A DNA stretch of 64,000 bases from positions 1-64,000 of the IMG/VR virus record IMGVR_UViG_3300033463_000025. One strand, 5' to 3'. The DNA is from a virus (lineage: Duplodnaviria; Caudoviricetes). Shown here piece by piece: positions 39,492 through 46,314 of this stretch. Under the pieces are notes generated by a model, which was given only the letters and a program-made list of their open reading frames with translations, was not told the origin of the DNA and did not search any database. Within the stretch, counting starts at the first letter, position 1, and each line of letters begins with the position of its first letter. The position numbers and the translations under genes were made by a program.

Positions 39492-40324
39492 ATTCCAAGC
39501 TCCAATCTTATTTGAGGTTTAATTGGATTATAGTTTACCATTTCAAAATCATAAATGGTCATATCATAGAAGTTCCGCTTTCCTGAATTTAACACTAATC
39601 GCGGCTTTGACTTTTCATTCTGCCCATAATATCTGTAAATCAGAGTTTTTGCCGCGTTAATATGTCTATCATAGATTTGCTCATTTGCTACAAAGTGAGT
39701 AAAAACTCCTGCTTTATAGCCTGTATGCTGTGCAATCATCATCAGTAAAGCCGCATATTGAACCTCGTTCACCATACCACCGCCTGAAGCCGTCAACATA
39801 TCACCAGAACGTTGAATCATACACATATCAAGAAATTCATCACGAACATTCCAAATAGTACAAAAAGCACAAGGGGCAAGTCCAGCAGTTTCACGCAAAT
39901 CAGTTTCTTGCCATAGATTTACAATTTTGCGACGACCATATGGGTCTTTTTCTATGTCATTAATTAACTGATTAATTAAATCATAACGTTTAACTGTTCC
40001 ACCATATCTTTGCCCGATTGTTCCATCTCCAATATCCCAATCCTTCCACCAACCAACTCCCATTTCCTCCATTTCGGAAATCTTATTAGTAGGTTTTTGA
40101 TAAATGGTAAAAATCTCTTTAATACCAGTTTTCCAAGCAACAGGTCTAAGGGTACAGATAGGGAAATCACCCTTGCTTAAATCATATTTTCTTACAACAT
40201 GATTGATTGAATATGTATATGCAGGTGTGCCATCGGCATATTTCGGGCGTGGATTATCGTCTTTATATCCATTTTTCAATATATCTTGTATCGTGTTTAC
40301 TAAGTAATCATCTGCTCTTGTCAT
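39488..40324 (-). CDS. thyA: Thymidylate synthase
   Basis: RRKI, LAPC, QRSGD, NEVQY, IYDRH. Confidence 0.92.
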   Translation of the reverse strand: MTRADDYLVNTIQDILKNGYKDDNPRPKYADGTPAYTYSINHVVRKYDLSKGDFPICTLRPVAWKTGIKEIFTIYQKPTNKISEMEEMGVGWWKDWDIGDGTIGQRYGGTVKRYDLINQLINDIEKDPYGRRKIVNLWQETDLRETAGLAPCAFCTIWNVRDEFLDMCMIQRSGDMLTASGGGMVNEVQYAALLMMIAQHTGYKAGVFTHFVANEQIYDRHINAAKTLIYRYYGQNEKSKPRLVLNSGKRNFYDMTIYDFEMVNYNPIKPQIRLELGI

Positions 40325-40341
40325 TTTTTTTTACCAGCTCC

Positions 40342-40629
40342 TTATTCACAACCAATATACGCTGGCGGATTATTATTCCTAAACCAACCGATTGATTGTT
40401 CACCTGTCTCGGTATTAGTCAAAATTTCAACTGTACAATCTTCATGTCGTTCAACAACATCAAAACAGTTTGTTCTAACTGTCGTGCTGTTATAAATATA
40501 AGGGCAAATAACATCATCACCGAAATATTCACTATACCATTTTCGACCCTCTTGAATATCCTTGTACATATAGCAAACATCTTTGTGACTACAGTGTTGA
40601 CATATTCTCTCGTTCATTAATTGTTCCAT
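40342..40629 (-). CDS. Hypothetical protein
   Basis: ORF with RBS; CxxCxHxxVC. Confidence 0.5.
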   Translation of the reverse strand: MEQLMNERICQHCSHKDVCYMYKDIQEGRKWYSEYFGDDVICPYIYNSTTVRTNCFDVVERHEDCTVEILTNTETGEQSIGWFRNNNPPAYIGCE

Positions 40630-40697
40630 TATAACTTATCCTTTCTTGTGCATTATTACCTGTATGCCACAATAAATAATGCTTTTATAATCATCTT

Positions 40698-40925
40698 GCG
40701 GTGTAATACATATCAACATAAAAAGGAGTAAAAAATGGATTTAGATAGCATACCTGTATATTACACAGATTTACCGCAAGATGAGTTGAAGCTACTGCTT
40801 TATTATAATCAAATACAACTAAGCAATTCTAAAACAGAAGAGCTAAAGCATTATTATCTGCAAAAGATAAAATACATATCTTCGCTAATAGAAGAATAAC
40901 AAACTAAACAAATGTATTACACCGC
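40698..40925. repeat. 14-bp perfect inverted repeats flanking the micro-ORF
   Basis: GCGGTGTAATACAT (40698-40711) / ATGTATTACACCGC (40912-40925). Confidence 0.85.
40735..40899 (+). CDS. 54-aa antisense-oriented micro-ORF (not in the ORF track)
   Basis: AAAAGGAG RBS then ATG; MDLDSIPVYYTDLPQDELKLLLYYNQ...SLIEE; occupies an intergenic gap. Confidence 0.65.
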   Translation: MDLDSIPVYYTDLPQDELKLLLYYNQIQLSNSKTEELKHYYLQKIKYISSLIEE

Positions 40926-41405
40926 TTATATTTCAGAAATAATCGTTACATTTCCAAAATGTTTTTTATCTTCTAAATCAATAGGAACATAATCAGTCTG
41001 GTTGTGTTGTTCAAAACACTTTTCATATGTATTCCAGTCTATTAACATTGGATATAATATAGTTTCAATATCATATATGGAAATAGAACCATCAATTAAT
41101 ATATGATTATTTCTTAATCCTCTTTGTCCATCATAAAATGGGATAACAAAAAATCTACTACCGTTTTTGAAAAGCACTTCATAATACAACTCAGAACGTT
41201 TATTTGCTCGTTGTATTGAACTTTGATAACTAACTAAAAGTTTATATACTATGTTCCTTATTGTCTTTATCTTATTGCCATTCATATCGTGTAAATAATA
41301 TAAAGCTGAATGATAGAATGAATAGTGTGTACACATTTTTAATTCTTTATCAATAGAAGATAATAAAAATTGATATTGCGATGTATTCATATTACTACTC
41401 ACCAT
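40926..41405 (-). CDS. Terminase-ATPase-fragment-like protein
   Basis: VLFKNGSRF...DGQRGLRNNHILIDG...ILYPML. Confidence 0.55.
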   Translation of the reverse strand: MVSSNMNTSQYQFLLSSIDKELKMCTHYSFYHSALYYLHDMNGNKIKTIRNIVYKLLVSYQSSIQRANKRSELYYEVLFKNGSRFFVIPFYDGQRGLRNNHILIDGSISIYDIETILYPMLIDWNTYEKCFEQHNQTDYVPIDLEDKKHFGNVTIISEI

Positions 41406-41781
41406 TCTTCTCTTTGGGTTTTAATATAGCCCAAACATAAATACTTTCGTTGTTCATTACAAAATCTTCACTTGCAACAACAGTATAATCAGCATTTTGA
41501 AATTCAACTGTAGTATTTTCACTAAGCAACGGACAATCAACATCACCAATATAGAGCAAATAACCCTGATTATAATTATTGTCTGTAAAAACATCTACAG
41601 GAGATTCGTCGGTTACATAATTAACATGGCGACGAAATGTCACATACTTACGACGTAGCGGTTGAATAAATGCTTTAGTCGATATACAGTAATTATCCCC
41701 ACATACAACAACGCTATTGCCGTACTTTTGTAAAGCGTTATTAATATACTTAGTTTTCATCATTCTTTTTCCACATATCAA
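41395..41781 (-). CDS. Hypothetical protein, possible head-closure-like fold
   Basis: AFIQPLR, LLYIG, Y.V...E, YVWAIL pattern. Confidence 0.4.
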   Translation of the reverse strand: MICGKRMMKTKYINNALQKYGNSVVVCGDNYCISTKAFIQPLRRKYVTFRRHVNYVTDESPVDVFTDNNYNQGYLLYIGDVDCPLLSENTTVEFQNADYTVVASEDFVMNNESIYVWAILKPKEKNGE

Positions 41782-41965
41782 ACTTAGCTATATTACACAA
41801 GGATTCAACCTGTTTGCAGACTTTTACAAGCGTTTGGTTGATATTAAAATTCTTTTCACGAGCGTAATCAGCAATCGTTGTAATAACACTCATAAGCAAC
41901 GTCGCATCATACTCGTATTCTGCGCTATTATTGGTATTCTCAACATCTGGCATATTGTTATTCAC
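41750..41965 (-). CDS. Hypothetical protein
   Basis: ORF in operon. Confidence 0.4.
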   Translation of the reverse strand: MNNNMPDVENTNNSAEYEYDATLLMSVITTIADYAREKNFNINQTLVKVCKQVESLCNIAKFDMWKKNDEN

Positions 41966-41998
41966 CCTTTCATTTACGCAAATGAAATAGTCATTTCA

Positions 41999-42358
41999 TC
42001 AGCATTTTTCAGTAGGAAAAATAGCCGTATTACAATGACGAAGGATATTTCGATAGACTTTATGCTCAACCTTATCGTCCAAAACAAGAGCGTTCCATCT
42101 ACGACCCCTTGTATTATCAGACGGTATAAGCACATCTATTCGACTTCCGTTCTTAAACGTAATCGCTTTCGTCGGCTGTGATAATGATAAATACTCAAGC
42201 AGAACGCAATCAACAAAATCCGTCAAAACATCAACAGCCTTATCAAGCGTATCACTATCAGCTACGGCAATTCCTATTTTCAACTTCGGATATAACTCGC
42301 ATATCTCAACAGCATATCTTAAAGCTGGTCGAGATAAAGGCAGTACAACATTGTTCAT
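41999..42358 (-). CDS. Terminase-ATPase-fragment-like protein
   Basis: CELYPKLKIGIA...ITFKNGSRI...DNTRGRRWNALVLDD. Confidence 0.6.
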   Translation of the reverse strand: MNNVVLPLSRPALRYAVEICELYPKLKIGIAVADSDTLDKAVDVLTDFVDCVLLEYLSLSQPTKAITFKNGSRIDVLIPSDNTRGRRWNALVLDDKVEHKVYRNILRHCNTAIFPTEKC

Positions 42359-42363
42359 TAATA

Positions 42364-42711
42364 TCACCCGCCATTCTCTCTTACAAGATAGTCCCATAAA
42401 TCTTTTGTAGTCTGAAGTTTAATGTCAACCCCATCGTCAACATAATCCCCTGGCTCCCAACGCTCGCCAAACTCAAGTTCCCAAACGAAATACGGTATTA
42501 CATCTGAATCGCAACCCATTATCTTTTCAAGAAGACCAATAACATCGTCATCAAGTGACGGGAACATAAATTCAATATCGGTATGTAATTCCTTATTCCA
42601 TTTTCGGATTAAGTCACTTAGGCTTCGCTCAAAATCTGCAACCTTCTTTACTCGTCCAATATACTTTTCAAATTCATCATACGTTATACTTATTTGTCTT
42701 TCCATTCGCAA
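42364..42711 (-). CDS. Hypothetical phage protein
   Basis: YFVWELEFG...LWDYL. Confidence 0.5.
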   Translation of the reverse strand: MRMERQISITYDEFEKYIGRVKKVADFERSLSDLIRKWNKELHTDIEFMFPSLDDDVIGLLEKIMGCDSDVIPYFVWELEFGERWEPGDYVDDGVDIKLQTTKDLWDYLVRENGG

Positions 42712-42744
42712 CCTCTTTTGTTTGTATGTCAGTAAATTTTAATT

Positions 42745-45700
42745 TTACTTGACAAATTCATATTTTGTCAGCCATAGTTCTTTCGTGCCTGGGATGGGCA
42801 AGAATGAGCCGTCAGGCTGTTTTTCTTTTTTCGGCTCATACTTTTGATTAAGTACGCGAATAATATCGCCTTTTTTGATTTGCTTATTTTTATATGTTGT
42901 CTTTCGTATTTTGCAGTAAAACTCAATACCCGTTTTAACAGCATATACCTGTAACCTCGGAGAATACTTTGTGCTTATAGCCAACACAACAAGTACCTTA
43001 CTTGCCTTTGGGTCAACTACGTCTACATAACCTAAATACTTTGATTGACTTTTTATCTTATCGCTTAAAGTCCTCGGTTCTACAATAAGGTGACTTTCCA
43101 TATAAAGCAGGAATCCATATGTATCAACTTTAGTAAAAGTCTTGTCCGTTACGTTTTGTGAAAACTCTGCGAGAATATTATAGTCAAGATTATATTTGTC
43201 AGCTTTAACTTTTGATACAGATACCTTACCGTACAGCTCATCAAATAACAGCTTGACTTTCGCAAGGAAATTAGCATCTCCAAACTCGTCAAAGAAATCC
43301 AAAGCAATCAGAGTATCAAGCTGGCTACTTGTTAAGGAAGTTTTATTTTTCAAATCAATCATTAAGTCAATAAATGATTTGTACCTATTATCTCTTAACG
43401 CATACATTTCTTCAGCAACAGCGGCGTTTAATCCATTAATTGAAGCTATGCCCTTTTGTATGGTATGAGTTTCCTTATCAAATCCGTAGTTGGCTCTTGA
43501 CTCTCTAAAGCGAATAGGTGTAATCCTAATCCCGTGTTTTCTTGCATATTCTGTGATAGCAAGCGACTTTTCTTTCTTGTCGATAAAGATATTAAAAGCT
43601 GTTGAAATAAATTCAAGCGGATAATAATATCTTAAATAACCACAGATATAGCCAACCCAAGAATAAGGGTCTGAGTGGTTTTGTGAAAACAGATAATCAC
43701 TTGAGTCTTTAACAACCGCTATAAAGCCTTCAACAATCTTTTCGGCTTCTTCGGGCGGCGTTCCGTATCGCTCATTCATCACAGCGAGAAAACCTTTGAT
43801 ATGTCTTCCACCAGCTTGCAACGAACCGCCATACTTGATAATTGGTATATCTTGCTCTGTACCCGTTTTCTTTGCAAAATGTCTTCGGACAATATCAGCT
43901 TCGCCCATTGTGAAATCACAAAACTCGTGGAGAAATCCCATAACTTCTTCTTGATATATGCAGAAGCCAAGCGTCGGTTTAAGGTATTCATTGATAGCAT
44001 AATGACCGTTATCTTTGAATACACCTTTTGCTAAATCGTCACGGTATGAGCTTCCACCTGGTCTAATCGCACCATTACCCATAGAGAAAAGGTCAATATA
44101 TGAGAAATTCGGGTTTTGCTTTCTAATGTTCTCAACGGTACTATCACTGAATAACTGTTGTAAGTATGCTGTAGCTGATTGTGACTCCCATTGAAATATC
44201 ATCGTGGTATCTTCTCTAATGCTATTCCAAACAGCCACATCATCAGGTGTATTATCTGGCGTTAAAAAATCTATCCCAGCCGCTTCACAAGTCTTTGAAA
44301 TCATACCCATCGAGTCCAAGCCTAATATATCCAGCTTGACAAAATTTAAGCTGTCAATTTCTTTCATGTTTAATACGGAAACGGGGTATTCATCATTTGA
44401 TGTAGTGAACGTTCCAAACCAGTCATCAATCGGGAATGGTGATACTACACAGCCAGCAGGGTGATTACCGACTGATACTACAACACCTTGAGCAATCTCG
44501 ACATTCTTGAATATATAAGGATATTTTGCCTTGACGCTTTCGTAATCATTTTCTGCAAGTTTGATTAGCTCTTCTGAGAAAGCTAAATAATCATAAGGAA
44601 TTTCTTTGTGTTGGGCTGATTTTGTATATTCCTTTTTAAGCCATTCTTCAACGGCTTTAGGCATTTCTAAATCTTCGCCCTTGTGGTGCTTTTTGTATTC
44701 TTTACGGTCTTTTTCATACTGCTTTAGAGCTTCATCAAGTTTTGGCGGAAGAACCAACGACCGCAGATTAATTTGAAATAACCCTCTACATATATCCTTA
44801 ATTGCACCCTTTAATGCGATTGTGTTAAAGGTCACTATATCGCAACAATACAATCCTTCTTTTTCTTGCAGGTATTTTCTAATTACTTTTCTATCGGGGT
44901 CATACCAGTCTGTATCTATATCAGCAAGACTAATACGTTCACGCGACATAAATCTTTCAAAGTTAAGGTGAAACTTAACACTATCAATCTCGGTAATACC
45001 AAGCAGGTATGCAATCAATGAACCAGATACAGAGCCACGAGAATAGCCAAACTTAATACCACGCCTCCGCATTTCACTTTTGCAATCCTCATCAAGAAGC
45101 ATAAAGTCTACTGCATCATTGTGAACATAGGTATCATATTCGTAATGTATTCTATCTACATATTCTCTGTAATTAGGATATTTTTGAATACCGCGCCATT
45201 TAACGCCTTCGTTGATTTTCTGCTTGAATACCTCTTGAGCTTTATCGCCATACAGACGAGGATATTTAGCAGAACGGTCTAATTCAAATGTTTCAACACT
45301 ATCTGTCAGCCTGACTGTGTTCTCCATCGCTTCGGCTACAACGTCCATAGGTAAAGAGTTCTGACGCTTATATGTGTCATATAATTCTTGTGGCGTTTTG
45401 AAAACCAAATTCCATTCATCTTCGTCGTTGAAATGAACACCTTTTGCGGCTTGCAGAATAGCTCTACATTCCATATGGTCTTCGCTAATAGCGTGTGTAT
45501 CAGTACCAACAATAAGCGGAATACCTGTTGCTTTATGAATTTCATAAAGCATTTTATTATAATCAATCTGTTCTTTGGACAGATGATGCTGAATTTCTAA
45601 GTAACAGCGATGCTTATTATTCCTCAAGAAGTTTAGAAATCTCTCAGCAACTTTGGCATCGCCTTTATGTAAAACCCCACCAAGACAGGCGGTAGTGACT

Positions 45701-46314
45701 AAAATATTGTCGGAAGTTTTGAAAAGCTCATCGAATGTAATTCGAGGACTGCTATAAAAATGACAGTCATCTTCACGATTAAAAGAAGCAGACGTGAGCT
45801 TATTTAACTCTTTTACGCCATCATAATTCTTTGAAATTAAAACACAATGGTAATTATCCCTTGTCTTTATATGCTCTGTTTTGATAGAATCAATATCTAT
45901 CCAAACGGTTTTTGTGATTTCGGGATTATCTGGGTCAGCAACGTCAGCTATCCACTTGCCATCATCGGATTGCCGTGGCTCTCCCAAAAGTGTAACTCTA
46001 ACAGCCTTTTTCTTTTTGTTTGGCGTAAGATTTATTAATTCGGCAGTAAAGTAAGAATTGTTTTCGCCGTTATCCTCGGTCAAATACGCCTCAATAGCGT
46101 GGATATATTTCATACCAGCGGCTTCAACGGCTTCTTTTTTATGTACCCATTCAAAAATATTGCCGTGTTCGGAAAAGGCTAAAGCTGTCATTCCGCACTC
46201 TTTTGCCGCTTTAACATACGTTTTAAATGGAGTAACACTGTCAATATTGATAGTGCCATTAGACAACATACTATGCAAATGATATATATTGTATCTTAGT
46301 CTGCTGTCTTGCAT
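42745..46314 (-). CDS. dnaE: DNA polymerase III alpha subunit (family C)
   Basis: PHP HLHS/SEHG/DTH, RGSVSGS, FERF, DIDTD, HPAG, KLDILGL. Confidence 0.95.
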   Translation of the reverse strand: MQDSRLRYNIYHLHSMLSNGTINIDSVTPFKTYVKAAKECGMTALAFSEHGNIFEWVHKKEAVEAAGMKYIHAIEAYLTEDNGENNSYFTAELINLTPNKKKKAVRVTLLGEPRQSDDGKWIADVADPDNPEITKTVWIDIDSIKTEHIKTRDNYHCVLISKNYDGVKELNKLTSASFNREDDCHFYSSPRITFDELFKTSDNILVTTACLGGVLHKGDAKVAERFLNFLRNNKHRCYLEIQHHLSKEQIDYNKMLYEIHKATGIPLIVGTDTHAISEDHMECRAILQAAKGVHFNDEDEWNLVFKTPQELYDTYKRQNSLPMDVVAEAMENTVRLTDSVETFELDRSAKYPRLYGDKAQEVFKQKINEGVKWRGIQKYPNYREYVDRIHYEYDTYVHNDAVDFMLLDEDCKSEMRRRGIKFGYSRGSVSGSLIAYLLGITEIDSVKFHLNFERFMSRERISLADIDTDWYDPDRKVIRKYLQEKEGLYCCDIVTFNTIALKGAIKDICRGLFQINLRSLVLPPKLDEALKQYEKDRKEYKKHHKGEDLEMPKAVEEWLKKEYTKSAQHKEIPYDYLAFSEELIKLAENDYESVKAKYPYIFKNVEIAQGVVVSVGNHPAGCVVSPFPIDDWFGTFTTSNDEYPVSVLNMKEIDSLNFVKLDILGLDSMGMISKTCEAAGIDFLTPDNTPDDVAVWNSIREDTTMIFQWESQSATAYLQQLFSDSTVENIRKQNPNFSYIDLFSMGNGAIRPGGSSYRDDLAKGVFKDNGHYAINEYLKPTLGFCIYQEEVMGFLHEFCDFTMGEADIVRRHFAKKTGTEQDIPIIKYGGSLQAGGRHIKGFLAVMNERYGTPPEEAEKIVEGFIAVVKDSSDYLFSQNHSDPYSWVGYICGYLRYYYPLEFISTAFNIFIDKKEKSLAITEYARKHGIRITPIRFRESRANYGFDKETHTIQKGIASINGLNAAVAEEMYALRDNRYKSFIDLMIDLKNKTSLTSSQLDTLIALDFFDEFGDANFLAKVKLLFDELYGKVSVSKVKADKYNLDYNILAEFSQNVTDKTFTKVDTYGFLLYMESHLIVEPRTLSDKIKSQSKYLGYVDVVDPKASKVLVVLAISTKYSPRLQVYAVKTGIEFYCKIRKTTYKNKQIKKGDIIRVLNQKYEPKKEKQPDGSFLPIPGTKELWLTKYEFVK

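Follow-up and report, generated by a model that had tools for sequence, protein, structure and literature searches.

Small relatives of the large terminase ATPase core that lack the P-loop in the replication gene block of a phage genome

The fold by which bacterial NLR-like sensors recognise phages is that of the large terminase (TerL), and the answers of phages to this recognition are largely open. Stand-alone look-alikes of the terminase ATPase have just entered the field as unexplained activators of the sensor Avs2 (Vs.8, Ksap1 and Ksap2). Two small genes of the phage record IMGVR_UViG_3300033463_000025 (Duplodnaviria; Caudoviricetes) raise the question of what such look-alikes do for a phage when they have lost exactly the ATP site that Avs2 recognises, yet are kept by selection. 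The record is a 143,758-bp IMG/VR genome with direct terminal repeats, and its first 64 kb (64,000 nucleotides) are the window analysed here. The two open reading frames, ORF B (41999..42358, 119 amino acids) and ORF A (40926..41390, 154 amino acids), lie on the minus strand between the genes of the DNA polymerase III alpha subunit (PolIII-alpha) and thymidylate synthase, ~86 kb away from the phage's own TerL gene. This placement among replication and nucleotide-metabolism genes agrees with the initial annotation, which had taken them for degenerate terminase fragments among early genes and possible early-expressed decoys of terminase-sensing immunity or inhibitors of packaging by competing phages. 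Both are divergent members of a large unnamed family of ~115-residue proteins, here called mini-TerLs, whose distant origin is the ATPase core of a YonF/SPbeta-type TerL.

Relationship of the two proteins to the large terminase

ORF A and ORF B share the motif F-K-N-G-S-R...D..RG.R.N....D as initially described, and match each other in BLASTP (E 4e-6). The own TerL, a 635-residue protein of the YonF/SPbeta type encoded outside the window (positions 127493-129400 of the record, G000), bears the same block (VKFKNGSKI...ARGNRSN) together with a C-x-x-x-I-L-Y-P stretch. In BLASTP, ORF B matches this TerL at E 2e-7 and ORF A at 8e-4. Searches of the PHROG profiles matched both ORFs to phrog_15503 (E 1.8e-6 and 2.8e-5). 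Since the own TerL matches the same profile at 7e-34, phrog_15503, labelled 'unknown function', is the ATPase half of the YonF-type TerL lineage. In cultured phages, tblastn matches are full-length TerLs only, from SPbeta-like, Clostridioides and related phages. The TerLs of SPbeta and phi3T are of the YonF type.

Profile alignments located the homologous segment. ORF B and two homologues aligned with four TerLs at 98.2% in hhalign (E 6e-14), with ORF B residues 12-111 placed on TerL residues 113-221, from just past the P-loop to just past Walker B. The P-loop of the own TerL is A-R-G-D-A-K-S (residues 103-109), and ORF B corresponds to TerL residues ~102-221. Its elements follow in the order short beta1, alpha1, beta2, alpha2, NGS hairpin, RG arginine, Walker-B strand (LVLDD) and alpha3. 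An alignment of 136 family members raised the hhalign value against TerL to 99.0% (E 4e-18). ORF A alone reached 75% against TerL alignments and 97.1% over 106 columns against the mini-TerL family (HMMER E 5e-14), in which its conserved Cys, NGS, RG and Asp all line up. Its C-terminal extension of ~35 residues is unrelated to TerL. Mini-TerLs and YonF/SPbeta-type TerLs are thus alike in homologous sequence and fold, sharing the conserved Tyr and the Cys/Pro region after alpha1, the F-x-N-G-S-x-I hairpin, the R-G-x-R-x-N stretch and the Walker-B strand.

The AlphaFold2 model of ORF B, built from the 136-row alignment, has a predicted local distance difference test score (pLDDT) of 94.3 and a predicted TM-score (pTM) of 0.87. 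It shows a short strand, a helix, a strand, a helix, a three-stranded hairpin region, the Walker-B strand and a helix. Comparison of the model with 48,161 solved chains by VIA-align showed that the top six matches are all terminases with Z scores of 8.0-9.4, namely those of herpes simplex virus 1 (HSV-1, 9.4), P74-26 (8.8), PhiV-1 (TerL in the Avs3 complex, 8.4), T4 (gp17, 8.3), Sf6 (8.1) and D6E (8.0), each aligned over 105-112 residues at 2.5-2.9 Å. T4 gp17 and the TerLs of P74-26, Sf6 (gp2), D6E and PhiV-1 (gp19) are solved relatives of the YonF/SPbeta-type TerL. Foldseek likewise found TerLs in the PDB (query TM-score, TMq, up to 0.67), and in BFVD, which holds predicted viral structures, it found large terminases together with uncharacterised proteins of the same size from Gordonia, Mycobacterium and Arthrobacter phages. 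A structural match to TerL, the absence of which would have spoken against the initial annotation, therefore exists in the solved chains, the PDB and BFVD. An earlier model from a 3-sequence alignment (pLDDT 65, weak glyoxalase-like Foldseek matches) is superseded by the 136-sequence model. The same-sized look-alikes in BFVD have 101-155 residues and come from cultured phages; the best is a 122-residue protein of Gordonia phage Hedwig (TM 0.78/0.76), and another is from Mycobacterium phage Catdawg.

Relative to TerL, the mini-TerLs are reduced to ~115 residues, ending ~15-25 residues after the Walker-B strand, so that over half of the motor domain is missing. They lack the P-loop, the beta4/beta5 coupling motif, the lid and the nuclease, and the catalytic glutamate is mostly gone. 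They therefore cannot be motors or enzymes, and they cannot bind ATP in the TerL manner. GK[ST], the end of the Walker A consensus (G/A-x4-G-K-S/T), occurs in neither ORF A nor ORF B, whereas the own TerL and the TerL controls have it. The Walker-B strand ends in DD in ORF B and in DG in ORF A (ILIDG). A tblastn search of the whole genome with the own TerL returned the two ORFs only (E 3e-4 and 0.44), with no further TerL-like segment and no nuclease; a decayed second terminase gene was rejected on this result. Because the P-loop, the catalytic pair, the complete ATPase domain and the nuclease all fail, ORF A and ORF B are not to be classed as terminases. The TerL-ATPase ancestry proposed in the initial annotation thus holds in sequence (BLASTP, hhalign) and in fold, as do the replacement of DE by DD or DG, the missing nuclease domain and, with the P-loop absent and Walker B degenerate, the catalytic inactivity. 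Of the two states suggested for Walker A, eroded or absent, it is the second that applies.

The mini-TerL family and its conservation

Searching 1.84 billion representative sequences with the family profile yielded 235 clusters at E <= 1e-3, so that the family has at least this many. Nearly all are stand-alone proteins of 100-200 residues, and nearly all match from their own second residue on. TerLs appear in the same search below the small stand-alone homologues, the partial ones (294 and 426 residues) from ~E 3e-6 and the first complete one (617 residues) at 3e-5. Conservation was measured in the 136-member alignment, with ORF B as its seed. All 136 members start just past the position of the P-loop and stop ~15 residues beyond Walker B, and none of them has a P-loop. 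Cys20 (98%), Asn70 (100%), Ser72 (97%) and G85 (88%) are highly conserved; at position 84, that of the RG arginine, 83% of the members have R and 10% have K. The Walker-B aspartate is kept by 73% of them, the complete DE pair by no more than 23%. What is conserved matches what does not vary in the corresponding segment of the parental TerLs. Rather than fragments, as they had been called, the two ORFs are complete members of a family of small stand-alone proteins.

Pfam, NCBIfam and PADLOC contain no model of the family. Pfam has no match for ORF A or ORF B, and only 4 of the 136 members weakly touch Terminase_6N or TerL_ATPase. PADLOC and NCBIfam gave no match in the eight proteins scanned (ORF A, ORF B, two other members and four neighbours). 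Members in the source databases are unnamed and come from metagenome assemblies, and the ESM Atlas neighbours are unnamed clusters, mostly viral. The longer members carry C-terminal extensions without a Pfam match above the curated cut-off. One profile match, a SIR2-STAND-TPR protein of 1403 residues (P0151), matches via its seven TPR repeats and was treated as spurious.

A FastTree phylogeny of 166 sequences, including 14 TerLs and one truncated TerL, placed all 15 of these in one clade (support 0.79) with the mini-TerLs outside. ORF A and ORF B fall into separate subclades (support 0.92 and 0.94), and the best family matches of ORF A are other members, not ORF B. The GC content also differs, 25.5% in ORF A (17.5% at third codon positions) and 38.9% in ORF B. 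Recent tandem duplication was therefore rejected as the origin of the pair. The neighbours of ORF A have a GC content of 33-39%, and its low value suggests a separate, probably recent acquisition from a more AT-rich source.

Substitution rates point to purifying selection. The ratio of nonsynonymous to synonymous substitutions (dN/dS) was estimated by the Nei-Gojobori method in one subfamily of three sequences, from an IMG/VR contig (L007) and two contigs of Clostridia metagenome-assembled genomes (MAGs; L049 and L050), assigned to Eubacteriales and Congzhengia. The TerL-like core showed a dN/dS of 0.077-0.083 in all three pairs, with dS ranging from 0.04 to 1.37, and the C-terminal tail is less constrained (0.12-0.35). 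A word-indexed search found two homologues of ORF B, of 118 residues (58% identity) and 116 residues (45-47%), that keep its length and blocks of invariant residues; viral and metagenome scans added no close relative. Among the 5.8 billion proteins of the word-indexed search, ORF A has no close homologue. Selection among relatives, as against decay, is thus seen in one subfamily at a dN/dS of ~0.08; for ORF B it is indicated by conservation of length, and for ORF A only by inference.

These data bear on the alternative that the two ORFs are functionless, decaying pieces of a former second terminase gene. The missing close homologues and atypical composition of ORF A would fit decay, as would a marginal copy with an internal stop in one relative. 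However, both frames are intact in AT-rich DNA, where the chance of an open frame this long is 3e-7 for ORF A and 2e-4 for ORF B, and a coding-like signal is confined to the annotated frames. The genes are tightly packed and have ribosome-binding sites, other TerL-like remnants are absent nearby, and both proteins are full-length by the boundaries of the family. Together with the constancy of length among the ORF B homologues and the low dN/dS of the subfamily, this makes decay very improbable. Neutral decay is rejected for the family and for ORF B, for which it is largely refuted, and is unlikely for ORF A. It is highly probable that ORF A and ORF B are selected mimics of the TerL core.

The distribution of the mini-TerLs is patchy. 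In 24 IMG/VR relatives whose PolIII-alpha is 44-59% identical, the common gene order is a helicase-like gene, two genes, PolIII-alpha, a variable island, glutaredoxin, NrdD and NrdG. By BLAST, the 24 genomes contain nothing homologous to ORF A, ORF B or either of the intervening orphans, and two (L023 and L030) have a degenerate 99-residue mini-TerL in the same slot. Five complete relatives have a YonF-type TerL throughout, and their mini-TerLs, at other genome positions, number two in one, one in another, none in two and a marginal copy with a stop in the last. All four sufficiently complete genomes that bear mini-TerLs (G000, G002, G004 and G008) also encode a YonF-type TerL. In a Congzhengia MAG contig, a TerL of this type lies ~44 kb from the mini-TerL. 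In an unrelated type of prophage, a mini-TerL is located between a Dam methylase gene and genes for a PAPS-reductase and a dUTPase, adjoining a serine recombinase. DNA methyltransferase genes neighbour mini-TerLs in L007 (Pfam match) and L045 (by eye). Two mini-TerLs per genome occur in two cases, and the proteins are found in uncultured phages and in contigs binned with Clostridia genomes; the hosts are probably clostridial. From the patchy presence and shifting positions it follows that the mini-TerL is an accessory gene, repeatedly gained, lost and moved in early or accessory islands.

Candidate targets of the mini-TerLs

The half-fold that the mini-TerLs retain comprises alpha1, beta2 and alpha2, then the F-x-N-G-S-x-I hairpin, the R-G arginine ahead of beta3 and the strand of Walker B. 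We infer that they act by binding whatever normally contacts this face of TerL, that is, by non-enzymatic mimicry. The reading that we tentatively favour, while regarding it as far from secure, is that they are putative antagonists of terminase-sensing immunity. They would be made from the variable island of the replication and nucleotide-metabolism block, which is assumed to be expressed before the late terminase gene, and would occupy host sensors of the TerL ATPase fold (Avs1-3 or Upx-type receptors). The sensor would not be switched on, because the mini-TerLs carry no bound ATP and no complete interface, and detection of the real TerL would be blunted. It is possible, if doubtful, that mini-TerLs in general are widespread phage structural decoys, putative ATP-free copies of the terminase surface gripped by the host pattern-recognition receptors Avs1-3 and Upx, which would be made before the terminase and would occupy or mis-assemble these sensors. 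The subclades, those of ORF A and ORF B in this genome among them, might each be matched to a different sensor.

Published work on Avs2 provides the frame for this antagonism. Avs2 grips the TerL ATPase domain via the TerL-bound ATP and a second, bridging ATP, and Vs.8, Ksap1 and Ksap2 fit the same pocket as the terminase and activate the sensor (bioRxiv 10.64898/2026.04.30.721860). The authors of that preprint speculate that such small TerL-ATPase-like proteins may be anti-defence factors (bioRxiv 10.64898/2026.04.30.721860). The dynamics of the mini-TerLs resemble those of conflict genes, with patchy presence, variable copy number and two subclades in one genome, and their neighbours elsewhere include DNA methyltransferases and a gene that by eye resembles a macro domain.

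Several points weigh against immune antagonism. The stand-alone TerL-like proteins tested so far (Vs.8, Ksap1 and Ksap2) activate Avs2 rather than inhibit it, so that a decoy role is plausible but cannot be assumed. A half-domain may bind poorly, because Avs sensors envelop most of their target. Neither of the anti-Avs proteins in a 2025 anti-defence catalogue, ORF55 and ORF83, mimics a terminase: one is a DNA ligase, the other a DprA/Smf-like Rossmann protein. Selection on ORF A is argued from family membership and an intact frame only, because it has no close homologue. Moreover, the retained arginine, which appears to be the equivalent of the trans-acting finger of P74-26 TerL, fits a role directed at the motor at least as well.

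The packaging motor is accordingly the nearest competing target, close in likelihood to the sensor. A mini-TerL could dock on a TerL subunit by its RG-arginine face and, having neither a site for ATP nor the remainder of the ring interface, cap or stall terminase assembly; this putative poison or regulator of the motor is a possible but doubtful function. It might act on an SPbeta-like phage that competes or is resident or, until late in infection, on the TerL of the phage itself. All cis-acting ATPase motifs are lost, whereas the arginine is retained together with G85, R/K87 and H/N89. P74-26 TerL has its trans-acting finger, R139, which has been confirmed by biochemistry, in the stretch from alpha2 to beta3 (PMC5727402), and the RG arginine just before beta3 appears to be positionally equivalent. 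The presence of a YonF-type TerL in every sufficiently complete mini-bearing genome is in keeping with a motor target, and a satellite protein, Gpi, sets a precedent as a small TerL binder that blocks packaging (PMC11417361). However, poisoning a phage's own type of TerL needs control of timing or specificity, of which none is evident, and the arginine is lost in some members (P0003 and the L045 protein of relative G002). A complex prediction that paired ORF B (136-row alignment) with residues 45-300 of the own TerL, its ATPase domain (6-row alignment), scored 0.02 and counts neither way. Less likely still is that the half-fold was recruited for another job within the early gene block, for instance as a binder of DNA, of an enzyme of nucleotide metabolism or of a replication protein. 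The repeated position beside NrdD/NrdG, thymidylate synthase, dihydrofolate reductase (DHFR), dUTPase and Dam genes would suit such a domain, as would the same-sized actinobacteriophage look-alikes, one of which is annotated 'replication-associated protein', and NGS and RG may owe their conservation to a purely structural role as turns. Yet the residues conserved are the very ones that are invariant in the parental TerLs, and patchiness among close relatives argues against a core replication role.

Comparison with known proteins sets the mini-TerLs apart from other TerL-like or TerL-binding factors. T4 Vs.8, which is early and toxic with EcAvs2, resembles the mini-TerLs in that it stands alone, is non-structural, derives from the terminase ATPase domain and has an early or accessory gene whose benefit to the phage is unexplained (bioRxiv 10.64898/2026.04.30.721860). 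However, Vs.8 has 219 residues and keeps Walker A and B, whereas the mini-TerLs are without Walker A. In hhalign, Vs.8 scored 0.2% against the mini-TerL family, and no Vs.8 PHROG is among the matches of ORF A and ORF B at E-values up to 10. Vs.8 is unrelated to the mini-TerLs and was derived independently from a T4-type TerL. Ksap1 and Ksap2 are also small, lineage-restricted accessory proteins with a TerL-ATPase-like layout of sheet and helices, and fit the terminase pocket of Avs2, but they trigger KpAvs2 or EcAvs2 and have no reported sequence homology to TerL, whereas the mini-TerLs are demonstrable TerL homologues. PLE Gpi offers a functional model for a small protein that binds TerL and blocks packaging; it is satellite-encoded and its abstract does not describe it as TerL-derived (PMC11417361). 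What is new relative to the known stand-alone look-alikes of the terminase ATPase is that the ATP site is lost throughout, that the proteins are half a domain in size and that the family is so large.

If mini-TerLs are decoys, a phage would here for the first time be seen to dull innate immunity with a mimic of its own molecular pattern. Either outcome, an immune antagonist or a motor poison between phages, would be new biology for phage conflict and the assembly of packaging motors. The proteins are small enough for cloning and direct testing, and the look-alikes in cultured actinobacteriophages could make the question experimentally tractable.

The locus and its neighbours

The minus-strand block that holds the two ORFs extends from ~32.6 kb on and comprises NrdG, NrdD, glutaredoxin, DHFR, thymidylate synthase and PolIII-alpha, as identified from translations and relatives. 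The PolIII-alpha gene (42745..46314, minus strand) is the conserved upstream anchor of the variable island with ORF A and ORF B. A gene of 113 codons (42364..42705, minus strand) with a weak match to phrog_28377 lies directly upstream of ORF B. Its counterparts, of 38-39% identity, are immediately downstream of PolIII-alpha in four relatives without mini-TerLs, which indicates that the variable island starts after this gene. ORF B begins with ATG after a ribosome-binding site, GGGTGA; an alternative reading of 132 residues from 42397 would overlap the upstream gene. Downstream of PolIII-alpha and the 113-codon gene follow ORF B, an orphan gene of 67 codons (41750..41953, minus strand), an orphan gene of 122 codons (41395..41763, minus strand) and ORF A, in a compact four-gene run on the minus strand. 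The shorter orphan has coding-like codon usage and no family match; the longer one has no P-loop and no family match, and its stop codon lies 4 bases ahead of the ORF A start. A second candidate ATG of ORF A is at 41405. Brief gaps or overlaps and plausible ribosome-binding sites give the run an operon-like character. A scan of 40200-42900 for promoters and terminators gave counts no higher than the shuffled expectation. The sole sizeable break in the gene run is a 296-bp gap (40630-40925) after ORF A and before the next minus-strand gene, which contains a plus-strand ORF of 54 codons (40735-40899) and may be an operon boundary.

A split ATPase completed by an adjoining P-loop protein was rejected, with no P-loop in the window neighbours. 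One contig does encode a P-loop protein near a mini-TerL: in L049, 1.2 kb ahead of the mini-TerL homologue on its upstream side, is the gene (1003-1347) of a 114-residue protein with the motifs RRGTGKSS and YLVDE (phrog_1828, labelled 'unknown function'), which by hhalign (1%) has no relationship to TerL. A 115-residue frame with a TerL-derived look occurs on a 115-kb human-gut contig (L032, 5947-6291). It contains AILYPES and FKNGSHI without a Walker-B strand and may be an independent, more TerL-like mini-TerL.

Frames resembling tyrosine recombinases, three or four in number, are located at 32626-33819 of the window, at 11-205 of the window and 143273-143758 of the record, and at 92215-92748 of the record. 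Those at 11-205 and 143273-143758 may be a single gene split by the record boundary. No serine recombinase was found in the phage genome.

The two relatives with the degenerate 99-residue mini-TerL show further genes nearby. The mini-TerL is followed by a macro-domain-like gene and then by a gene of ~406 codons with a WGR-like N terminus by eye (L023, 15329-17004; L030, 15720-17414), and further along by thymidylate-synthase-like and nucleotide-kinase-like genes, also by eye. This stretch may be an anti-ADP-ribosylation or anti-defence cluster. In the same two genomes the PolIII-alpha match (L023, 10001-14475; L030, 10001-14883) is ~1.0-1.4 kb longer than in the others, and the best BLAST segment begins ~2.2 kb in; this looks like the insertion of an intein, an intron or a homing endonuclease.

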